A DNA stretch of 64,000 bases, from NCBI GenBank assembly GCA_040768125.1, contig JAXGNG010000001.1, positions 1,351,318 to 1,415,317 on the forward strand. The letters run 5' to 3'. The position numbers were made by a program, and so were the translations under genes. The stretch comes from Spirochaetota bacterium. Its GTDB lineage: Bacteria; Spirochaetota; UBA4802; UBA5550. Numbering within the stretch: position 1 is the stretch's first letter; every line of letters starts with the position of its first letter. Of this stretch, positions 14,162 through 38,542 are shown piece by piece. Under the pieces are notes generated by a model, which saw only the letters and a program-made list of their open reading frames with translations, was not told the DNA's origin and did not search any database.

Positions 14162-14168
14162 TGAATTG

Positions 14169-14194
14169 TTAGCACTCAATTTAATGAGTGCTAA
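14169..14194 (+). promoter_or_regulatory. CIRCE-type HrcA operator (TTAGCACTC-N8-GAGTGCTAA)
   Basis: Near-perfect match to the CIRCE inverted repeat directly upstream of groES; a larger dyad AATTGTTAGCACTCA/TGAGTGCTAACAATT is visible. Confidence 0.78.
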
Positions 14195-14219
14195 CAATTT
14201 TCTTAAATTTTTCTTGTTC

Positions 14220-14255: not shown

Positions 14256-14323
14256 AATAATAACCCAGCAATTTCTTCTACCAATAGAGGAAACCAATTC
14301 ATTTTTTTTTAAGGAGGATGGAA

Positions 14324-14608
14324 GTGGCTCTAAAACCTATAGGCGATCGTGTCGTCGTTGAGTTGCTTGATCAGGAAGAGGAGAAAGTCGGATCTATCTA
14401 CGTGCCTGATACCGCGAAAGAAAAACCCCAGCAGGGTAAGGTTGTGGCGGTTGGCCAGGGCAAACGTGACGGCAAGGACCTTGTGCCGATGACGGTCAAG
14501 GCGGGAGATACGGTAATTTTCAGCAAGTACGGCGGGATGGAAGTCAAGCATGGCGGAAAAGATCTTCTCATCCTTTCCGAAGGAGACATACTGGCGATTA
14601 TCGAGTAG
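14324..14608 (+). CDS. groES: Co-chaperonin GroES
   Basis: (M)[12 protein letters not shown]...GKVVAVG... canonical GroES; a GTG start at 14324 gives proper spacing from the AAGGAGG RBS (track ORF uses ATG 14318, abutting the RBS). Confidence 0.9.
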
Positions 14609-14760: not shown

Positions 14761-16407
<1,647 letters not shown>

Positions 16408-16439
16408 CGCGCGAAAGCTCAATAATTCGGCAAAAGGAA

Positions 16440-16471
16440 AGGGTCGGGATAGTATCCCGGCCCTTTTTTTA
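16440..16471 (+). terminator. Rho-independent terminator after groEL
   Basis: GGGUCGGGAUA-gu-AUCCCGGCCC hairpin followed by TTTTTTTAT. Confidence 0.65.
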
Positions 16472-16604
16472 TTCCACCTGGTGCCGGTGAGGGTAAAAAA
16501 AGAATATATTCAGCTTGCCGCCCCGTTGTCCGATGATTGAACGGGGGAGGCGCCGCGTGAGGCACGGAATCCGACGCCCGTTTCCCCGGTGAGACCGACG
16601 GGAT

Positions 16605-17501
16605 GTGCGGTGGTACATGGACAACAGCGCGACAGTGACATTGCCGAACAGGTTCCGGGATCCCTACGATTTCGAGTATGTCATAGATCTCCGCGAGGCG
16701 ATCATGGGCGGCGCGCGGAGCCTGGACCTGTCCCGTATCTCCTTCATCGAGCCCTATTCAATGCTTTCGCTCCTCCTGATGGGGAGGGAGTACCTGAGAA
16801 AAACGGGCACCAAGCTTCACCTCGTGGGGATTCCACTCTCCATACACCAGTATCTTCACCGCATGGATTTTTTCAAGGCGGGTATCTTTGACGTGGCCGA
16901 CAGGCTGGACGACAAGCTTCTCCTCAAGCGCAGTTCATTCAGCCGACGGGTCATCGAGATCACCGAGATACCCAACAAGGAGAGGGAGAGCGTCCGCGTC
17001 ATATCCTCCATCGTGGGGGTCTTCAGGAAGCGCGCGGCGCACATCCTCAAACACTGGCTCACGGACAGGGTGGTTGACTATTTCGTCACCGTTATTTCAG
17101 AAATATGCCAGAACGTCTTCGAGCACAGCCTCGACTCCGGTTACCTCGCTATGCAGACCTACACGGCGGGCAAGGAGCAGGTAGTGAGGCTCTGCATAAG
17201 CGATTCGGGGATAGGCATCGAAAAAAGTTTCGAGAACAGCGGCGTGCGGTATGATTCACCGGCAAACCTTATAGAGCTCGCGCTCACGACTCCCATTTCC
17301 AGCAAGAGGGAGTTCGGGTACGGTCTGAGCCAGGTACACGCGATCGTGGAAAGGCTGAAGGGAAGCATCTACTTTCGTTCCGGCGCGGCGTCGGTTTCGA
17401 CGCTGTACCACAGGAAGAACCCGGGTTCGTCGTACCTCTTCCTCAAGAACGACCTGAGCGCATTCTGCGGGACCCAGATATCGATTTCACTGATGGGATA
17501 G
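16605..17501 (+). CDS. Fusion protein: N-terminal STAS-like (anti-sigma-antagonist-like) domain + C-terminal GHKL/HATPase_c domain (RsbW/SpoIIAB-like kinase)
   Basis: N-terminus LDLSRISFIEPYSMLSLLLMGREYL..KLHLVGIP resembles SpoIIAA/STAS; C-terminus has N-box EICQNVFEHS, G1 ISDSGIGI and G2 GYGLSQ of HATPase_c. Confidence 0.6.
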   Translation: MRWYMDNSATVTLPNRFRDPYDFEYVIDLREAIMGGARSLDLSRISFIEPYSMLSLLLMGREYLRKTGTKLHLVGIPLSIHQYLHRMDFFKAGIFDVADRLDDKLLLKRSSFSRRVIEITEIPNKERESVRVISSIVGVFRKRAAHILKHWLTDRVVDYFVTVISEICQNVFEHSLDSGYLAMQTYTAGKEQVVRLCISDSGIGIEKSFENSGVRYDSPANLIELALTTPISSKREFGYGLSQVHAIVERLKGSIYFRSGAASVSTLYHRKNPGSSYLFLKNDLSAFCGTQISISLMG

Positions 17502-17512
17502 AACGAAGGGAT

Positions 17513-18064
17513 ATGGTCATCAAGGTAAAAAAGAAAGCCGAGGAGCTGAAGCTGAGGTCTCCGGACCTGATCACGCGGCATATGGGGCGGGCGCTCTACG
17601 GGGCCGTGATGTCCCTCGTGGAAGCCATGGGGGACGACGAGACACTGGTGCTGGACTTCGAGGGGGTCAAGGTCATCGATTCGTCCTTCGTGGACGAGTT
17701 CATCGTGAGGCTGATTCTCGACTCCGTGCGTTCCGAAGGGCCGTTTTACGTGAAGCTGAAGAATCTTTCGGAAATCTCCGAGATGAACATTGACATGGTG
17801 CTTCGCTTTCATTCGAAGTACAAAAACAAAAAAATTGTTGTAATAACCGAAAACATCTGTCAGAATAATGCCTTCTTCATCGGTCCCCTCTCGGACCGTG
17901 AGCGGGAATTCATTGAGTTTATCCGCGTCAACAGGTCGGTCATGACGGGCGATATCGCCAGGTTCACGGGTGGGCAGGGGGAGGACGTGGAAAAGATGAT
18001 GGATGAATGCCATTCCATGAGGATCGTTAAGAAGGACGGTAAGGGCGTTTACAGCGCGGTTTGA
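17513..18064 (+). CDS. DUF4325-type STAS-like domain protein with C-terminal winged-HTH-like region
   Basis: TLVLDFEGVKVIDSSFVDEFIVRLI matches the STAS-like DUF4325 signature (recalled); C-terminal REREFIEFIRVNRSVMTGDIARFTG looks HTH-like; 11 nt after previous gene. Confidence 0.5.
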   Translation: MVIKVKKKAEELKLRSPDLITRHMGRALYGAVMSLVEAMGDDETLVLDFEGVKVIDSSFVDEFIVRLILDSVRSEGPFYVKLKNLSEISEMNIDMVLRFHSKYKNKKIVVITENICQNNAFFIGPLSDREREFIEFIRVNRSVMTGDIARFTGGQGEDVEKMMDECHSMRIVKKDGKGVYSAV

Positions 18065-18576
18065 AGACCGGGAGGACACGTCGGGGTCGCATAACGGATC
18101 GGACGGTTATGAAAGCCGTATCAAAAAAAATCAAAAAAGAGAGGGATGACAGCCTCTACGGCCTCCTCTCGTCATACAAATCCAGTACCACGTACCTCCG
18201 CATCCTCGAATCCGAGGAGGAAGATTCGGTGGTGGTCCAGCTGACGGACAACCCGGGTAATTTTCAGTCGATCCCCCAGGAGCAATTCAGGGGCTACAGG
18301 GCCCTCCGCCGGCTCGAGATGGGTGTGCAGCGCATGTCCCTCAAGTACGTGCTCCCGGAGTATCTCATCGACGTGCTGGGGCCCATGCTCGAGTTCAACA
18401 TCCCCTTCGATAAGGCGGTTATAATCGACGGTATCCAGAAGGACGGGTTATACAGCATAATGACCAAGTTGAAGTACAGGATGAAGGTAATCCAGGGAGC
18501 GAGGAAGATCCTTAACCTGAGCCCCCAGAAACGGTACGAGATCCTGGAAAAATATTTTTCCGCGAACGGGGAATGA
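18061..18576 (+). CDS. Hypothetical protein (171 aa), translationally coupled (ATGA overlap)
   Basis: ORF with coding-like composition, 4-nt overlap with upstream gene; no recognised domain. Confidence 0.5.
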   Translation: MKTGRTRRGRITDRTVMKAVSKKIKKERDDSLYGLLSSYKSSTTYLRILESEEEDSVVVQLTDNPGNFQSIPQEQFRGYRALRRLEMGVQRMSLKYVLPEYLIDVLGPMLEFNIPFDKAVIIDGIQKDGLYSIMTKLKYRMKVIQGARKILNLSPQKRYEILEKYFSANGE

Positions 18577-18582
18577 ACGGCG

Positions 18583-19602
18583 ATGCAGGAATACAATTCA
18601 TTGCAGGAAAAGGCGAAACTGGTGGACATCGCCCTGAAGTACACGAGGGGCGACATCATAAAGGCCAAGGAAATGGCCTCCGGGCAGTACATGGACATCA
18701 TGGCGGTGAAGGGGAAATTTTACGTCGATAAGAAGAACGTCGCCGGGGTGTTCATCGCTTTTTTCAATTTCATACAGGAATACGTCGCCAACGTGGCCTG
18801 CCTCCTTTCATCGGAGCCGGGTCTATTCGAAAAAACGCGCGTTTTCGACGACTGGAAATCGCTCTACCGTGACATCGGTGCCGGCAGGAAGGGACCGGGG
18901 GTCATCGATTCCCAGAATTTCACCTACTATCTCCTCGACTCCTTCGTGAGCTACGATGTCTTTCCCGACGTACAGGAAAAAAACCTCGTTGAACTGACCG
19001 AGGCGGTGAAGGATATCCTCGCAAAATCATTCGGTGCCGGCTCCGTACGGTGCCAGATTGAGCTTGAACCCGCGTCCTCAGTCGCCCTCGATATCGCGGG
19101 TGTGGCCATCGACGTCCCCTCCGGCACTTCAAAGGAGGTCAATGAGGTCGCCAATGAGGATGAGCGCATCACGAAGCTTGAAAGCGAGGCGCGCTACATC
19201 GTCGAGGGGAGCGCGGTCCTCGCGCCGGTGAAGGGAAAGAACATCAGCGATCTGAATCCCGGGGATAAGATACGCGTGATGCTCACAGGGAAGGATGCCG
19301 TGTCCGAAAAGATACTCAGGCTGGTAAATGCCTATGGCCCCGACGGCAGCCGGTCGTCGGTGACGGGAAGGGTCAAGGCGAAGATCCCCTTCGAAAAGGG
19401 CGGGATCATGCTTTATGCCTTTGTCGCAAAGGGGGTCCTGGCGAAGATGTTCGAGGAGGAGAACGTCAGGATCATGCTCGACGTGCCCTCGCAGGAGGCC
19501 CCGGCGGAAAGCCATTTCATGGAGAATCGCGCGACTTATCTCATCGCGCTGGTCCTGGGCCTTGTCGTCCTCGCGGGGCTCATCCTGCTCCAGCTGTTAT
19601 GA
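18583..19602 (+). CDS. Hypothetical protein (339 aa) with C-terminal transmembrane anchor
   Basis: 6 nt after previous gene; N-terminal helical UBA/NAC-like stretch; C-terminal ATYLIALVLGLVVLAGLILLQLL TM helix. Confidence 0.5.
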   Translation: MQEYNSLQEKAKLVDIALKYTRGDIIKAKEMASGQYMDIMAVKGKFYVDKKNVAGVFIAFFNFIQEYVANVACLLSSEPGLFEKTRVFDDWKSLYRDIGAGRKGPGVIDSQNFTYYLLDSFVSYDVFPDVQEKNLVELTEAVKDILAKSFGAGSVRCQIELEPASSVALDIAGVAIDVPSGTSKEVNEVANEDERITKLESEARYIVEGSAVLAPVKGKNISDLNPGDKIRVMLTGKDAVSEKILRLVNAYGPDGSRSSVTGRVKAKIPFEKGGIMLYAFVAKGVLAKMFEEENVRIMLDVPSQEAPAESHFMENRATYLIALVLGLVVLAGLILLQLL

Positions 19603-20468
19603 CCATGCGGTCAACACCGATCCGCATTCTCTTTTTCCTTGCCGCGGTATTTCTTTCAGGACAGATGCCCGACTGGAAGCACTTCAGGGACAGGGAGGGG
19701 AATTCCTATTTCATCGACAGGGCGGGGAGAATCCGGATAACCTCGTCCGATGCTCCCGCCTATCGGCCGGTCTCCTCCCGCGCCATCGACTACCACCTTC
19801 ATTACGGCGAAACCCTCATCAAGGAGCGCCGCTACGCAGAGGCGCTCACGGTGCTCAAGTCAATCTGCGCCCTTCCCGCCGGGAATAACCGGGTCTACGA
19901 GGCCCAGGTGCGGGCGAGGGAGGCACTGGGAGATTTGCGCAGGCGGAACGGCGCGCGTTTTGACCGGATGAACGAATCCGCCTCGCTCCTGCTCTATATG
20001 GACGGATCGGACATTGTCGTTATCAATGATTTCATGCGTTACTCCTTTCGGGGGCCCCCGGGCATGCGCGTCATCAGGAGGAGGGAACGGGGCGGCAGGG
20101 ATTATCGCTATTCAGGCACGCTTCTGGGGATAACCCGCGGCGCGGATAAGGAGGACTACTATGCCTACCTCGTGGCCGTGGACAGCGAGATAATCGGGAA
20201 CCCCTTCAGGGATGTCGAGCAGGCCCGGGAAAAATGGCGGGGATATCTCGGTTTCGACACGCTCGCGCGCGAACTCGTGCTGCGCGGGGAAGACCGGATT
20301 GTCCATCGGTTCAGGAGCGGGTCCCCGCCGGTGTACGCGGGCTATGAGGCTGTTTTTCTTAACGGGAAAATCACGCACTGTGTCCGCGTCATCGCCTCGG
20401 AGGCCGGTTTCACGGCAGACGGCGAGGCGATGAAACGGATCGTCGAGGGATTTTCCCTCGTGCGATGA
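19599..20468 (+). CDS. Hypothetical secreted protein (289 aa), ATGA-coupled to upstream gene
   Basis: N-terminal signal peptide RILFFLAAVFLSGQ; TPR-like helical segment; no assignable family. Confidence 0.5.
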   Translation: MTMRSTPIRILFFLAAVFLSGQMPDWKHFRDREGNSYFIDRAGRIRITSSDAPAYRPVSSRAIDYHLHYGETLIKERRYAEALTVLKSICALPAGNNRVYEAQVRAREALGDLRRRNGARFDRMNESASLLLYMDGSDIVVINDFMRYSFRGPPGMRVIRRRERGGRDYRYSGTLLGITRGADKEDYYAYLVAVDSEIIGNPFRDVEQAREKWRGYLGFDTLARELVLRGEDRIVHRFRSGSPPVYAGYEAVFLNGKITHCVRVIASEAGFTADGEAMKRIVEGFSLVR

Positions 20469-20483: not shown

Positions 20484-20954
20484 CTATCCCGTGTAGACGA
20501 GGGCGGTTTCGGTGCAGTTCAGCCGGTTGGGGCAGCCCGCGCAATCCTTCCATATTTTTTCCGGGAGATCGTTCCTGTCGATTGCAGTAAACCCGTTCTT
20601 CTCGAAAAAAAGAGGGGCGTAGGTGAGCACGAATATCCTGGGGTGCCCGTCCCCACGGGACAGGGCGGTGATGAGGGTCCGCAGAAGCGCCGTGCCGATA
20701 CCCCTCCGGAGATGCTCCTTGTGCACCGCCAGGGAGCGCACTTCCTTGAGATGGTCGCCGTAATCGTAAAACGTGACCACCCCGGTAATGGCGTCATTCT
20801 CCTCCGTCACGAAGAACTTGTTTATGTCGGCGCCGATGTCATCGGGGCTCCGCGCAAGGAGTATCCCCTCCGATGCGTAGGATGATATGATGGCGTGGAT
20901 TTTGCCGATCTCATCTGTCCTTGCTTTTCGAACGATCGCCTCGGTTTTCACCAT
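20484..20954 (-). CDS. GNAT N-acetyltransferase, ArgA-like short N-acetylglutamate synthase type with C-terminal Cys cluster
   Basis: RRGIGTALLRTLI acetyl-CoA motif; C-terminal KIWKDCAGCPNRLNCTE cysteine motif typical of short ArgA-like GNATs. Confidence 0.78.
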   Translation of the reverse strand: MVKTEAIVRKARTDEIGKIHAIISSYASEGILLARSPDDIGADINKFFVTEENDAITGVVTFYDYGDHLKEVRSLAVHKEHLRRGIGTALLRTLITALSRGDGHPRIFVLTYAPLFFEKNGFTAIDRNDLPEKIWKDCAGCPNRLNCTETALVYTG

Positions 20955-21080: not shown

Positions 21081-21659
21081 TTACCTTTTGATAACGCGCG
21101 TGTTTTCGGCAAGCGAATATTTTGGATGGGCGGAAATTTTTTTGAGGGCTTCAAGGGCGTCGTCGTGTTTACGGTATGGCCCGATGAATATCCGGAAGCG
21201 GTCGTTATGCTTTGACAGTATGACGGTGTGACCGAGCCCGCTGATGTAGGAGGCCATATTCTGCGACGTGGCGTGGTCATAATCGCCCTTTACCGAGAGC
21301 ACGTAGGGATAACTCTCGCGGGGAAACGCGTTTTTTCCGGGGACGGCCGCCTTTGTTTCGTTGCCGACCATGAAGGGTATTCTTTTCCCGAAATCCGCCA
21401 TGGCGTTGAAGGTCCTGGCGTCGACTATCTCCTTGTCGGTCCCCCCTGAGAACTTTATTCCCACGACGATTCCGACCGTGAAGGAGATAATGCAGAGGGC
21501 GGTAATGGTGAAGAATATCCTGCTCGCCCTCTTCCTGACCCGCTCGATTTCCCGCGGCGTGGTCTGGGTCACGCGGGGATAATACTCCGGGTCAAAATCG
21601 GAGAATTGCGGATGGACCATGCGGGGACTTCTTTTTTCGTAAAAATCGATATTTTGCAT
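21081..21659 (-). CDS. SPOR domain-containing membrane protein
   Basis: N-terminal cytoplasmic region, TM helix IFFTITALCIISFTVGIVVGI, C-terminal SPOR-like fold (YVLSVKGDYDHATSQN...FRIFIGPYRKHDDALEALKKI). Confidence 0.65.
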   Translation of the reverse strand: MQNIDFYEKRSPRMVHPQFSDFDPEYYPRVTQTTPREIERVRKRASRIFFTITALCIISFTVGIVVGIKFSGGTDKEIVDARTFNAMADFGKRIPFMVGNETKAAVPGKNAFPRESYPYVLSVKGDYDHATSQNMASYISGLGHTVILSKHNDRFRIFIGPYRKHDDALEALKKISAHPKYSLAENTRVIKR

Positions 21660-21835
21660 GCCTGGTTCCCTGGATCACACATCATTCCGGGAGACGGACA
21701 CGCCAGGTGCCGCGCATCTCGTTTCCGGGACTCATTATATGAATTCGACATTGTTTGAACGGCGCATAAGAAATTAATTCCGCGCCGGGAAGGGCGGGTT
21801 GAATAAAAAAATGGGCATCCGGCGAGGAATTATAC

Positions 21836-21864
21836 TTGCCAGCATTCATTTGCCGGGTTATAAT
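21836..21864 (+). promoter_or_regulatory. Near-consensus sigma70 promoter TTGCCA-N17-TATAAT upstream of the STAS gene
   Basis: Perfect -10 TATAAT, 17-nt spacer, 5/6 -35. Confidence 0.5.
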
Positions 21865-21939
21865 CTTAGTCATCCAGGTATCCAGAGGCATTCACACGGC
21901 CAATCCAGGGATGTTTCGGAGACGGCGGGGGCCGTACGG

Positions 21940-22320
21940 ATGAAGGAGAAATTCCACGCCATGCGCGGCATCGAGTTCACACAGTACGATTCATATTCAG
22001 TTATTACCCTGCCCGTGGAGGAGATGGATTTCATCAAAACCCCGAAAATATCCGCGGCGATTCAGCGGGAGATCGAGGGCGCGGGGTTCCCGAACATCGT
22101 GCTGGAATTGCCCAACCTCTACTACATCGACTCGACCGGCATGAGCAGCATCGTCAACCTGAGCAGGGCGATGAAGGAAAAGGGAAGCGAAATGGTGCTG
22201 GTTTGTGGAAGCCCGAGGATCATCCAGATCTTCGGCATCGCGAAAATCGGCGCGCATATCAGGATCTTCGGCTCCCTCGAGGACGCCGAGCGTTATTTTA
22301 TCTCCAGGCCCTCATCGTAA
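21940..22320 (+). CDS. STAS domain anti-sigma factor antagonist (SpoIIAA/RsbV-like)
   Basis: MKEKFHAMRGIEFTQYDSYSVITLPVEEMDF...LELPNLYYIDSTGMSSIVNLSRAMKEKGSEMVLVCGSPRI; start trimmed from track ORF 21799. Confidence 0.75.
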   Translation: MKEKFHAMRGIEFTQYDSYSVITLPVEEMDFIKTPKISAAIQREIEGAGFPNIVLELPNLYYIDSTGMSSIVNLSRAMKEKGSEMVLVCGSPRIIQIFGIAKIGAHIRIFGSLEDAERYFISRPSS

Positions 22321-33412: not shown

Positions 33413-33733
33413 GGCGCCTGCCGAATTCTGTTTCTCATTAAGTCACACGCGGTTAATCGTTGACGACGGGGATAAATTAATCAATTAAAAATCATGACGG
33501 CGTTATGTCCCGGAGTGGACGCGCCGGCTGGGTAAGATTCCGCGCCATCCCGCATTAATTTCTTGACAAGTACGCTTGTTGGCTTAACATTTATACGGTT
33601 ACAGGGGCTGATTTCATGCGTGAGGGAGGGATCGATACCCTCGCGACGGGAAGGCGCCACGAAGGCCCATGATCCCCCGTGGCGGGCGCCATGCCAATTA
33701 CTGCCGTACCAGAGGCGAAGGGAGATTTTATAT

Positions 33734-33761
33734 TAAATTTTTTATAGCCCGGCGCCGATAT
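33734..33761 (+). promoter_or_regulatory. Candidate sigma28 (FliA)-type promoter TAAA-N16-GCCGATAT upstream of the flaA-like pair
   Basis: Match to TAAA-N15-GCCGATAA with one extra spacer nt, about 75 nt upstream of the first FlaA-like start with AAGGAG RBS. Confidence 0.3.
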
Positions 33762-33836
33762 TGTAAAAGCATGAGACCGTATTTATCATAACGATACGCC
33801 AGAGCGCCGGGAATACCATTTTCAAAGGAGTATGCG

Positions 33837-34586
33837 ATGAAAAGGATGACAAGAATCTTCACATTGTCGTTCGCCATAGGCATCATGATGCTTTTTTTCG
33901 GCAACGGTACCAACCATCTTACGGCCCAGGAGGAAGCGGGGAAGAAGAAGCAGGACGGGCTGGTGGTGGACTGGGTAAATGATTTTGAGAATTCTGAGGA
34001 CTGGCGCGCAGTGGCGACCTGCCCCCTCGGCGATACCAAGACGAGAAAAATCCCCGGCAAGCCCCGACCGGTGAACGACCAGGGCCAGCCGGTTAATGAA
34101 GAGGGCCAGCCCGGCGAGTTTAAAGGCGAGATCACCGATGAAAACGGAATAACCCGCAAGAATGAATACGTGCTCGGCGTAAAGACCTACTTTTACGACA
34201 GGGGCTTCGACCGTGTCGAGGTCTTCCCGCCCAATGAGTATATCATCAGGGGCAAGGCGCGGGAACTCAAGTTCTGGGCCCTGGGAAGGAAGTTCCGTCA
34301 CACGATCTGGGTCAAGTTGAGGGACTACCGGGGACGCATCCACAAGCTCAAAGTGGGCCGCCTTGATTTCTGGGGCTGGAAAGAGATGTCGGTCATTGTT
34401 CCCGGATGGCTTCCCCAGTCGTCAAGCTACGCGCTCCTCGACAAGAACCTTCATTTCGTTTCATTTTTCATCCAGAGCGACATGTACGAGGTGCCCGGAA
34501 CGTTTTACACGTATCTTGACCAGTTCAGGGTCGTAACAGACCTTTCTGAATTCACGGGTGACGAGACGATCAAGGATACCTGGTAA
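33837..34586 (+). CDS. Flagellar filament outer-layer (sheath) protein FlaA-like, paralog 1 (249 aa)
   Basis: Signal peptide; architecture and size match the spirochete FlaA family (recalled); paired with a second paralog as in Leptospira flaA1/flaA2. Confidence 0.45.
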   Translation: MKRMTRIFTLSFAIGIMMLFFGNGTNHLTAQEEAGKKKQDGLVVDWVNDFENSEDWRAVATCPLGDTKTRKIPGKPRPVNDQGQPVNEEGQPGEFKGEITDENGITRKNEYVLGVKTYFYDRGFDRVEVFPPNEYIIRGKARELKFWALGRKFRHTIWVKLRDYRGRIHKLKVGRLDFWGWKEMSVIVPGWLPQSSSYALLDKNLHFVSFFIQSDMYEVPGTFYTYLDQFRVVTDLSEFTGDETIKDTW

Positions 34587-34617
34587 AATCGATACAGGCC
34601 AAGAAGGGAGGCTTTTA

Positions 34618-35499
34618 ATGAGAGCATATAGTTCAAGAATCATGGCAATTGCAATGTGTTCGCTCATGGCGCTGGTCCTCGGCCTTGTGGCGGTGGAACC
34701 GGCTCAGTCCAGGATCATCACCAACGTGCCCGCCGATGTCAGCGGCGACGAGGAGCTTGCCGTGGTCATCGAGGATTTCGAGGCCGCCGAGGTAAGCGAC
34801 AAGGGCTGGAAGATCGAATCAATGCCGAAGCAGTTCACCAAGGCGGAAACGGAGGAGCGGTTGAAGATGAAGAATCCCGTTCCCCTCCTCGAGATAAAGG
34901 TGGTCCCCGGCGCGCCCAATGACATGAACGTGGAGGAATGGTCCCTCACCGGGCTCGGCAAGAAAAAGGAAAAAATCCTCGGCATGAGCTACCGGTTCCG
35001 GTATCCCGGGACCAACGAGATCCATGTACTCCCGCCCCTTGAAGTTGACTGGAAAGACCGTCAGCCGGTCATGTCGTACAACGCCAGCACGGGGAAGGAG
35101 GAGCAGGAGCGCGCCATCCAGCTTCCGGGACAGGCGAAGGCGATATCCATGTGGGTGCATGGCAGGGGGCACCCCTACGACCTGGAGCTCTGGCTCAAGG
35201 ATTATACCGGCGCGACGCACGTGCTGAAGTTCGGATCGGTCAATTTCGTGGGATGGCGCCCCATGTCGGTGGAGATTCCCGGCAACATCCCCCAGACCTA
35301 CATGTCGTACCCGCAGACGAGGGTCACCAAGATCACGCGTTTCGTCCTCAGGGCGGTTCCGAACGCCCCTCGCGCGGAGTTGATGGAAAAGGCCTATTTC
35401 TTTTTTGACCAGCTGAAGGTCCTGACCAGCACCTACGAGGTCAATTTCGACGGTGCGGATCTTCACAAGATTTTCGACGGCGGAGAAAAAAAGCAGTAA
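34618..35499 (+). CDS. Flagellar filament outer-layer protein FlaA-like, paralog 2 (293 aa)
   Basis: Start trimmed to MRAYSSRIMAIAMCSLMALV after AAGAAGGGAGG RBS; shares the pattern ...LKFGSVNFVGWRPMSVEIPG / KLKVGRLDFWGWKEMSVIVPG with the upstream paralog. Confidence 0.45.
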   Translation: MRAYSSRIMAIAMCSLMALVLGLVAVEPAQSRIITNVPADVSGDEELAVVIEDFEAAEVSDKGWKIESMPKQFTKAETEERLKMKNPVPLLEIKVVPGAPNDMNVEEWSLTGLGKKKEKILGMSYRFRYPGTNEIHVLPPLEVDWKDRQPVMSYNASTGKEEQERAIQLPGQAKAISMWVHGRGHPYDLELWLKDYTGATHVLKFGSVNFVGWRPMSVEIPGNIPQTYMSYPQTRVTKITRFVLRAVPNAPRAELMEKAYFFFDQLKVLTSTYEVNFDGADLHKIFDGGEKKQ

Positions 35500-38457: not shown

Positions 38458-38542
38458 GCCGCGATGGTGGAATTGGCAGACACGCTAGATTCAGGATCTA
38501 GTGGGCATTACGCCTGTGAGGGTTCAAATCCCTCTCGCGGCA
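38458..38542 (+). tRNA. tRNA-Leu (anticodon CAG)
   Basis: GCCGCGA acceptor stem paired with TCGCGGC+A, D-arm GTGGAATTGGCAGAC, anticodon loop TTCAGGA, long variable arm, T-arm GAGGGTTCAAATCCCTC. Confidence 0.85.

Follow-up and report, generated by a model that had tools for sequence, protein, structure and literature searches.

The window analyzed here is a stretch of 64,000 nucleotides (nt) from contig JAXGNG010000001.1 of a Spirochaetota bacterium (assembly GCA_040768125.1), and all positions given below are counted from its first letter. Downstream of the chaperonin genes groES and groEL it carries a cluster of five genes, referred to as G1 to G5. The first two encode a STAS-GHKL fusion and a protein in which a STAS-like domain is joined to a winged helix-turn-helix (wHTH), and sequence comparison places them in the broad CapK/VapK-CapS/VapS superfamily, as a VapK-type kinase accompanied by a CapS-type substrate. 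The explanation that we favor, and which on the comparative evidence we hold to be moderately probable, is that G1 and G2 make up a repressor switch of the CapK/CapS type, controlled by phosphorylation, that has become fixed in the core genome and governs the envelope-associated genes G3 to G5. The five genes are as follows.

16617-17501, + strand: G1, STAS-GHKL serine kinase, CapK/VapK-like, without the N-terminal helix-turn-helix (HTH); 294 amino acids (aa) when started at ATG 16617 (a start at GTG 16605 would instead give 298 aa and an open reading frame (ORF) of 16605-17501)
17513-18064, + strand: G2, CapS-like protein of 183 aa with a STAS-like (DUF4325) domain and a winged helix, putatively both repressor and substrate of the kinase
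18109-18576, + strand: G3, cytoplasmic orphan of 155 aa; a longer ORF, 18061-18576 from TTG, is probably unused
18583-19602, + strand: G4, tail-anchored membrane protein; 339 aa
19599-20468, + strand: G5, secreted or periplasmic protein; 289 aa

Homology of G1 and G2 to CapK and CapS

The CapK-CapS module was described by Chambers, Rani, Min, Villa and Corbett (EMBO J 2026; PMC13373217), to whose work the structures 9z71, 9z72, 9z73 and 9z7o belong. CapK is an HTH-STAS-GHKL kinase and CapS a STAS-wHTH repressor; capS always lies directly after capK, and the pair stands upstream of immune operons in 348 of 443 cases (PMC13373217). It was shown experimentally that single-stranded DNA (ssDNA) activates CapK, with the result that CapS is phosphorylated at Ser54, the CapS dimer leaves its TTAA palindromes and the adjacent operon is de-repressed (PMC13373217). 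Deletion of the CapK HTH gave no phenotype, and an HTH-less relative, VapK, controls VapS, the STAS antitoxin of a PIN toxin; the role of the module in general stress responses was left open by the authors (PMC13373217).

Pfam recognizes HATPase_c in G1 (E 3.6e-8, residues 160-261) and, weakly, STAS. The GHKL motifs are invariant among 47 homologues, namely the N-box SE.CQN..EHS (SEICQNVFEHS in the window), the motif known as the G1 box, DSGIGI, and the G2 box, FGYGL, and the STAS-like segment LDLS..-FIEPYSM is highly conserved in the G1 alignment. The proteins used for comparison came from a genuine capK-capS-Bub locus on an E. roggenkampii plasmid (L083). In hhalign, the G1 profile matches this CapK with a probability of 95.9% (E 5.9e-9, 261 columns), pairing G1 residues 17-295 with CapK 68-362 and setting the catalytic N218 of CapK opposite G1 N170, which is invariant both in the 47 homologues and in an 11-sequence cross-phylum alignment. 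An earlier sequence-only reading of this DNA had taken gene 1 for a STAS-GHKL fusion, and the Pfam matches and the CapK alignment bear this out.

The evidence for the second gene is of the same kind. G2 matches Pfam DUF4325 ("STAS-like") with E 1.9e-5, and when a profile of its 62 orthologues was compared with the PDB, the matches were 9z72/9z73, "MarR family regulator" (E 2e-5), 9z71, "winged helix-turn-helix regulator" (E 1.4e-4), and 9z7o, "Escherichia VapS" (E 2.9e-4), the CapS structures 9z72/9z71 being matched near full length by G2 residues 24-176. The hhalign comparison of G2 with CapS (probability 90.7%, E 1.2e-6) likewise covers both the STAS domain and the wHTH. In it, CapS S54 pairs with G2 S58, which lies in a DSSF motif and is invariant in 62 sequences, two of them from other phyla, and the C-terminal wHTH of G2, about 60 residues long, pairs with that of CapS. 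These DUF4325 and CapS matches uphold the description of gene 2 as a STAS-like protein with a C-terminal HTH.

The likeness to CapK-CapS includes the gene order, a STAS-GHKL kinase and then a STAS-wHTH protein (here 11 nt apart), the conservation in G1 of the catalytic Asn and in G2 of the serine on STAS helix alpha-2 that accepts the phosphate, and a downstream operon as the presumptive regulatory target. The differences lie elsewhere. CapK residues 1-67, with the N-terminal HTH, have no counterpart in G1, which begins about 15 residues before its STAS domain, and because the CapK residues that contact ssDNA (W68, K237 and K239) are not conserved, ssDNA sensing by G1 is unsupported. The cargo consists of three lineage-specific, envelope-associated genes, only 44 nt on in the window, rather than of an immune operon (Bub, CBASS, Thoeris or others), and the locus belongs to the core genome and is inherited vertically, not island-borne. 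The sequence-only reading had described a partner-switching-like kinase and STAS pair whose output is not a sigma factor, which agrees with these results, and had not recognized it as a described system; in this it needs correction, for the pair is homologous, remotely but over the full length, to CapK/CapS and VapK (PMC13373217).

It is also informative to consider how widely such proteins occur. An exhaustive search with the G1 profile gave 1,569 cluster representatives at a cutoff of E <= 1e-3 and 366 at the stricter one of E <= 1e-10. They are mostly about 290 aa long and matched from end to end, and named members of the family come from Gemmatimonadota and Latescibacterota. Among the remote G1 homologues in other phyla (E 1e-22 to 1e-38, ~290 aa), three loci were inspected and two have a G2-like next gene; it is because the homologous pair recurs as a portable module in other phyla that we assign G1 and G2 to the superfamily. 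In one of these two loci the G2-like gene (hmmsearch E 9e-21; Pfam DUF4325) is followed by a fused E2/E1/JAB (Prok-E2/ThiF/JAB) gene and a patatin gene, with NACHT and TIR-UvrD_C upstream; in the other the G2-like gene (E 5e-10) precedes NurA and HerA (HAS-barrel/DUF87). Located at L082 2256-12104 and L079 6001-12100 in defense-island-like settings, these remote pairs look like unannotated capKS- or vapK-type loci. At the third locus (L077 6001-8471), the G1-like kinase P0252 is preceded by a two-component pair (HisKA_3/GerE) and has no G2-like neighbor; a protein with a Zn-ribbon and transmembrane (TM) segment and an RNase H-like exonuclease-WYL fusion lie downstream, and this neighborhood may be another output type of the kinase family.

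Conservation, layout and promoters of the locus

When one genome from each species was scanned with the G4 alignment as query, 70 loci came up, all of them in uncultured metagenome-assembled genomes labeled Spirochaetota, Leptospirales or Leptospiraceae. In 66 of the 70, far more than chance would give, G1, G2, G3 and G4 are colinear on one strand; the four exceptions are three contig ends and L073, which has a 28%-identical G4 relative without G1-G3. The closest locus, L005, is 90-99% identical to the window over the five genes. G1 has 292 database relatives; every one of the best 120 belongs to uncultured Spirochaetota, with an identity of 59% or more. G5 was found in 50 of the 55 loci with room for it and is absent from one subclade, in which ExbB/ExbD-like genes follow. 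Median identity to the window is 88% for GroEL, 61% for G1, 43% for G2, 44% for G3, 39% for G4 and 34% for G5, and this parallel drop of the gene identities with GroEL points to vertical descent of the cluster. The G1-G4 linkage is kept despite differing upstream flanks (groESL, DUF327, M18 peptidase), and the GC content of the cluster, 0.53-0.60, is the same as in the rest of the window. By these comparisons, the five-gene cluster is a vertically inherited core-genome locus in an uncultured, Leptospira-related spirochete lineage. The sequence-only reading had named conservation as a unit as one of the points on which its proposal could fail; with G1-G4 colinear in 66 of 70 species-level genomes, the cluster is conserved in that way and the proposal survives.

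The layout of the genes was also reconsidered. All five ORFs are present on the + strand where the sequence-only reading had placed them, and of its four junctions (11, -4, 6 and -4 nt) three hold when read from the sequence: the gap of 11 nt between G1 and G2, the gap of 6 nt between G3 and G4, and the ATGA overlap of G4 with G5, where a second ATG lies at 19605. The ATGA overlap it gave for G2 and G3 does not hold, in that the long G3 ORF opens with TTG (TTGA, not ATGA) where it overlaps the end of G2, and ATG 18109 is the conserved G3 N-terminus in alignments of 59-68 orthologues. Because the conserved start aligns with this ATG, the spacer between G2 and G3 is most likely 44 nt. For G1, ATG 16617 (MDNS...) is most likely the start, in preference to GTG 16605.

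The G2-G3 spacer is the longest (median 49 nt) and the most variable of the junctions. It measures 0-30 nt in ~27 loci, 44-62 nt in the clade of the window and 76-216 nt in ~28 loci, and the long spacers carry a sigma-70-like tACTTGAT-N17-TAtAAT. Such promoter-bearing spacers mirror the promoter region between capS and its cargo and suggest that in many lineages the cargo is a separate transcription unit, as in capKS loci. The genes do form a same-strand cluster, as the sequence-only reading had said, but its single, co-translated operon of five genes is too strong a claim, since a promoter-bearing spacer of their own precedes G3-G5 in about half of the relatives.

Upstream of G1, the features that matter are these.

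14318-14608 and 14773-16407: groES and groEL, upstream of the five-gene cluster
16434-16470, + strand: Rho-independent terminator of groEL, a 17-bp hairpin followed by a U-run
16501-16538, + strand: conserved cis-element 5' of G1, AGAATATATTCAGCTTGCCGCCCCGTTGTCCGATGATT, putative promoter and possibly also operator

The element 5' of G1 holds a sigma-28-like -10 box, CCGATGAT (16530-16537), and a -35-like TTCAG, and in the window and L005 it is overlapped by a 10-bp perfect palindrome, GAATATATTC (16502-16511). Its 38-bp consensus, aTAAT.TTCAg-N16/17-t.CCGAT.AT, lies 20-210 nt 5' of G1 in nearly all relatives: a simple search found an aligned copy in 52 of 67 loci and a position weight matrix found most of the others, with only 3 non-G1 sites scoring at least 20 within 1.17 Mb of related DNA. 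The promoter with which the element was compared is the sigma-28 (FliA) consensus, TAAA-N15-GCCGATAA; a mapped sigma-28 promoter of T. denticola has TTAA at -35 and CCGATAA at -10 (PMC9481697). The -10-like CCGATnAT is kept in nearly all relatives, and the -35 region reads T[TC][AC]A[AG], at a spacing one base over that of the sigma-28 consensus. A first scan for the sigma-28-like motif with a degenerate pattern was uninformative, and a consensus promoter/terminator scanner picked up neither this element nor the groEL terminator. The 5' region of G1 gave no sign of a structured leader or riboswitch (z 0.08; no Rfam match). Because the element is well conserved and the recognition-helix region of G2 poorly so, we read it, as a putative assignment from sequence, mainly as a promoter rather than as an operator for G2.

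At 33726-33763 (+), a site that fits the sigma-28 type more closely, TTAAA-N16-GCCGATAT, stands 74 nt 5' of two tandem genes for FlaA, the flagellar filament outer-layer protein (33837-35499, +; Pfam FlaA E 1e-22 and 8e-22). A gene for a SPOR-domain membrane protein, described below, has TAAA-N15-GCCGA(T/C)AAT about 60 nt upstream in L031, L034, L041 and L052.

The sequence-only reading had left it undecided whether the position next to groESL was meaningful or coincidental, and the evidence now makes it incidental. The groEL terminator, a strong one that sets the cluster apart from the heat-shock operon, folds with a free energy of -24.9 kcal/mol (z -5.3, with 0 of 200 shuffles equally stable). 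Among the 56 loci with at least 3 kb of upstream sequence, groEL is directly upstream in 22, all of which have a G1 at least 60% identical to that of the window; in the remaining loci a DUF327 gene, an M18 aminopeptidase gene or some other gene precedes G1. The terminator and the count of 22 of 56 indicate that the adjacency is lineage-specific synteny with no sign of an operon, and a link to groESL by co-transcription or heat shock was rejected on these grounds. The heat-shock operon itself has a CIRCE-type (controlling inverted repeat of chaperone expression) perfect inverted repeat at 14163-14200 (+), TTAGCACTC-N9-GAGTGCTAA, inside GAATTGTTAGCACTCAATTTAATGAGTGCTAACAATTT and about 120 nt upstream of groES, which is expected to be its HrcA operator.

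On the other side of the cluster, genes for a GNAT acetyltransferase (20484-20954, -) and for the SPOR-domain membrane protein (21081-21659, -) converge on it. Of 55 relatives, 44 keep the GNAT gene there and 48 the SPOR gene, from which it follows that the synteny block is larger than the five genes. In some lineages a small opposite-strand ORF of the Fis-type HTH (Pfam HTH_8, E 8e-11) lies between G4 and G5, in a spacer of 360-740 nt; examples are L056 9012-9272 (-) and L050 9006-9314 (-), and in the L050 group the ORF comes after G4 and G5 is missing. A single tRNA gene at 38458-38542 (+) is the sole match at the Rfam gathering threshold across the 64-kb window.

The products of G3, G4 and G5

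The sequence-only reading found no recognizable domains in genes 3 to 5. This stands for G3: none of its 59 orthologues matches Pfam, NCBIfam or PADLOC, and the comparison with PDB sequences gave nothing significant; its gene is set close to G4, with a median gap of 1 nt and a gap of at most 20 nt in 64 of 65 loci. It does not stand for G4, a distant homologue of LIC10486/DUF4899, nor for G5, with its PsbP/Mog1/DcrB-like fold. PADLOC gave zero matches among the five proteins of the cluster, and G3-G5 are also without Pfam or NCBIfam defense matches.

G4 aligns over nearly its whole length with NCBIfam NF047678, the LIC10486 family (55.9 bits, E 3.5e-15; residues 4-334 to model positions 6-360 of 363), and 16 of 17 divergent members of the G4 family match the same model, at best with 1.6e-22. 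The scores lie below the curated cutoffs, at 55.9 against 500 bits for the NCBIfam equivalog model and 13.4 against 25 bits for Pfam DUF4899. Hence, G4 is by sequence a distant homologue of LIC10486/DUF4899 and not a member by curated threshold; it is similar in size to these Leptospira proteins and aligned with them in full length, with a score far under the cutoff. LIC10486 is a hypothetical protein of Leptospira that is seroreactive in leptospirosis (PMC3798601), and the literature on LIC10483-10487 gave only mentions in serology and proteomics. In a structure model of G4 built from 104 sequences (predicted local distance difference test, pLDDT, 84.6), N-terminal helices and an alpha/beta domain (residues 1-175), for which no PDB counterpart was found, are followed by a predicted SH3/KOW-like barrel (200-300) and a predicted C-terminal helix, hydrophobic at residues 315-339 and placed at 311-338 as a TM helix. 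Because this helix stands at the extreme C-terminus, G4 is predicted to be tail-anchored.

The most distant relatives of G4 (27-28% identity; L075 7001-11077, L073 126-3106) occur without G1-G3, in a setting of a Cys-rich, zinc-ribbon-like protein (~305 aa), the G4-like protein, ksgA, bactofilin and fliS; P0230 is alike, and a search with the divergent G4 alignment gave only four further L073-like proteins. That these relatives lack G1-G3 suggests that the G4 family is older than its tie to the kinase pair.

The model of G5 (43 sequences, pLDDT 85.1, predicted template modeling score 0.81) has a signal helix at the N-terminus, a WW-like motif of three strands and a TPR-like helical bundle, and its C-terminal domain resembles PsbP/Mog1/DcrB. 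The WW-like hairpin contains the motif QMPDW...GN.YY.D..GKI, of which QMPDW...GN is invariant. A profile comparison with PDB sequences and Pfam scans of all orthologues gave nothing significant for G5, which has no sequence similarity to the PsbP/Mog1/DcrB/LpqN superfamily (3-11% identity) and differs from it by the added N-terminal hairpin and TPR-like bundle. The terminal helix of G4 and the signal-like N-terminal helix of G5 agree with what had been said earlier of a C-terminal membrane anchor in gene 4 and secretion of gene 5. Nothing points to G3-G5 as an enzyme or a toxin; they look rather like a membrane- or periplasm-associated scaffold or binding module. Where the sequence-only reading had seen genes 3 to 5 as direct effectors of partner switching, the CapK/CapS model instead makes the wHTH of G2 the output and these genes the regulated cargo.

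Proposed mechanism, its rivals and what they imply

On the repressor-switch explanation, the unphosphorylated G2 dimer would bind DNA through its winged helix and repress the adjacent genes, and probably its own operon as well. The GHKL kinase of G1, once activated, would phosphorylate G2 at the invariant Ser58 of its STAS domain, upon which the dimer would fall apart and G3-G4-G5 would be de-repressed. The activating ligand of CapK is ssDNA, and G1 is without those DNA-contact residues. The cargo would be an envelope-associated module in which the small, cytoplasmic G3 is translationally coupled to the tail-anchored, inner-membrane G4, with G5 in the periplasm as a PsbP/DcrB/LpqN-like scaffold or ligand-binding fold that is dispensable in one subclade. 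Transcription would run from the conserved element 5' of G1, with its sigma-28-like -10 box, independently of groESL.

Several observations weigh against this explanation. The homology to CapK and CapS is remote, at ~24% identity for G1 and ~17% for G2. G1 is without the CapK HTH; CapK W68 pairs with a variable F/L/C/M position, in a part of the alignment that is uncertain at its N-terminal edge, and K237/K239 pair with G1 T187/G189, near which Lys/Arg are partly conserved. The wHTH half of G2 is far less conserved than the STAS half, and none of the seven invariant residues of G2 lies beyond G124, a position that precedes the wHTH. The operator search found no recurrent palindrome or k-mer common to the G1-upstream region and the G2-G3 spacer, and GAATATATTC is only a local palindrome, confined to the closest relatives of the window. 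In the window and ~27 relatives the spacer between G2 and G3 leaves no room for a promoter of its own, which means that repression would there have to work at the single upstream promoter. Lastly, G3 is without any structural or functional annotation.

Some of these points suit a switch at the level of protein rather than of transcription, of the VapKSC type, in which the STAS domain of G2 would hold G3 or the cytoplasmic part of G4 inactive, phosphorylation by G1 would free the target, and the winged helix would serve for protein interaction or as an accessory domain rather than as the output. G1 consists of STAS and GHKL only, the HTH-less architecture by which the CapKS paper defines VapK; the STAS partner has a conserved Ser/Thr, and VapS is among the matches of the G2 profile (E 2.9e-4). 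The strict linkage of G1 to G4 in 66 of 70 genomes, the poor conservation of the G2 recognition-helix region beside an invariant STAS face round S58, and the failure of the operator search to give a shared motif are all consistent with such a switch. However, the alignment of G2 with CapS covers both domains, and G2 has a full wHTH where the C-terminus of VapS is a short helix; neither G3-G5 nor any of 59 G3 orthologues matches a PIN/VapC toxin, no other toxin domain or sign of a toxicity gene was found in the cargo, and the long, promoter-bearing G2-G3 spacers of many relatives suit transcriptional control. We give a protein-level switch a modest chance.

Classical partner switching, in which G1 would sequester a sigma factor encoded elsewhere (for example sigma-28) and G2 or a downstream STAS protein would be the antagonist, seems quite improbable. 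As in SpoIIAB-SpoIIAA and RsbW-RsbV, a GHKL serine kinase would act on a STAS protein, at a Ser of a D-S-S motif at the start of the alpha-2 helix. The resemblance of the GHKL domain to anti-sigma kinases, which was also remarked on for CapK (PMC13373217), the Joint Genome Institute annotation of G1 as "anti-sigma regulatory factor", the sigma-28-like element that precedes the cluster, and a canonical single-domain STAS gene 1.3 kb downstream (21799-22320, +; Pfam STAS E 1.9e-14) could all be taken in its favor. Yet the Pfam searches found no sigma factor or PP2C phosphatase domain in the five cluster proteins, the rest of the window not having been searched systematically; G1 is fused to a STAS domain of its own and matches CapK in full length, unlike the stand-alone anti-sigma kinases of 140-160 aa, and its substrate G2 carries a DNA-binding-type domain. 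The downstream STAS gene, which could be a further substrate of G1 or unrelated, was detected only in the closest subclade of the window (L003-L016).

An undescribed anti-phage defense system, in which the CapK/CapS-like pair would control G3-G5 as an abortive-infection effector acting on the membrane, is highly improbable and was rejected on its distribution. In its favor, CapK/CapS precede immune operons in 348 of the 443 known cases, the remote G1/G2-like pairs have defense-island-like contexts and a tail-anchored membrane protein could serve as an effector. Against it, PADLOC is empty, and 66 of 70 species-level genomes have the cluster at the same syntenic position (GNAT and SPOR neighbors), with a divergence that runs parallel to that of GroEL and a host-like GC, the opposite of a patchy, mobile defense distribution; the G4 relatives without G1-G3 adjoin ksgA, bactofilin and fliS.

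The regulatory pair is thus a variant of a kind described in 2026, attached to two undescribed families, G3 and G5, and to a distant relative of an uncharacterized Leptospira family, G4. Read as a CapK/CapS-type module, the locus is a clear non-immune case, which extends such control beyond immunity and allows the generality of the kinase-STAS-wHTH switch to be tested; it is also a natural variant in which to seek a different activating ligand. The HTH-less STAS-GHKL architecture is widespread, with 1,569 representatives as against 443 + 289 catalogued loci. For LIC10486/DUF4899, whose member in Leptospira interrogans is a seroreactive antigen, the locus gives a first functional handle. One can also imagine that a CapK/CapS-type pair, a kind hitherto known solely for controlling mobile immune operons in response to DNA damage, was domesticated by this spirochete lineage, re-tuned to another ligand (the loss of the ssDNA-contact residues is the reason for proposing this) and brought under a sigma-28-like, motility-regulon promoter, so as to control a hitherto undescribed, envelope-spanning G3/G4/G5 module. 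We consider this unlikely; if true, it would be a new signaling route from the cytoplasm to the spirochete envelope or to the periplasmic flagellar compartment.

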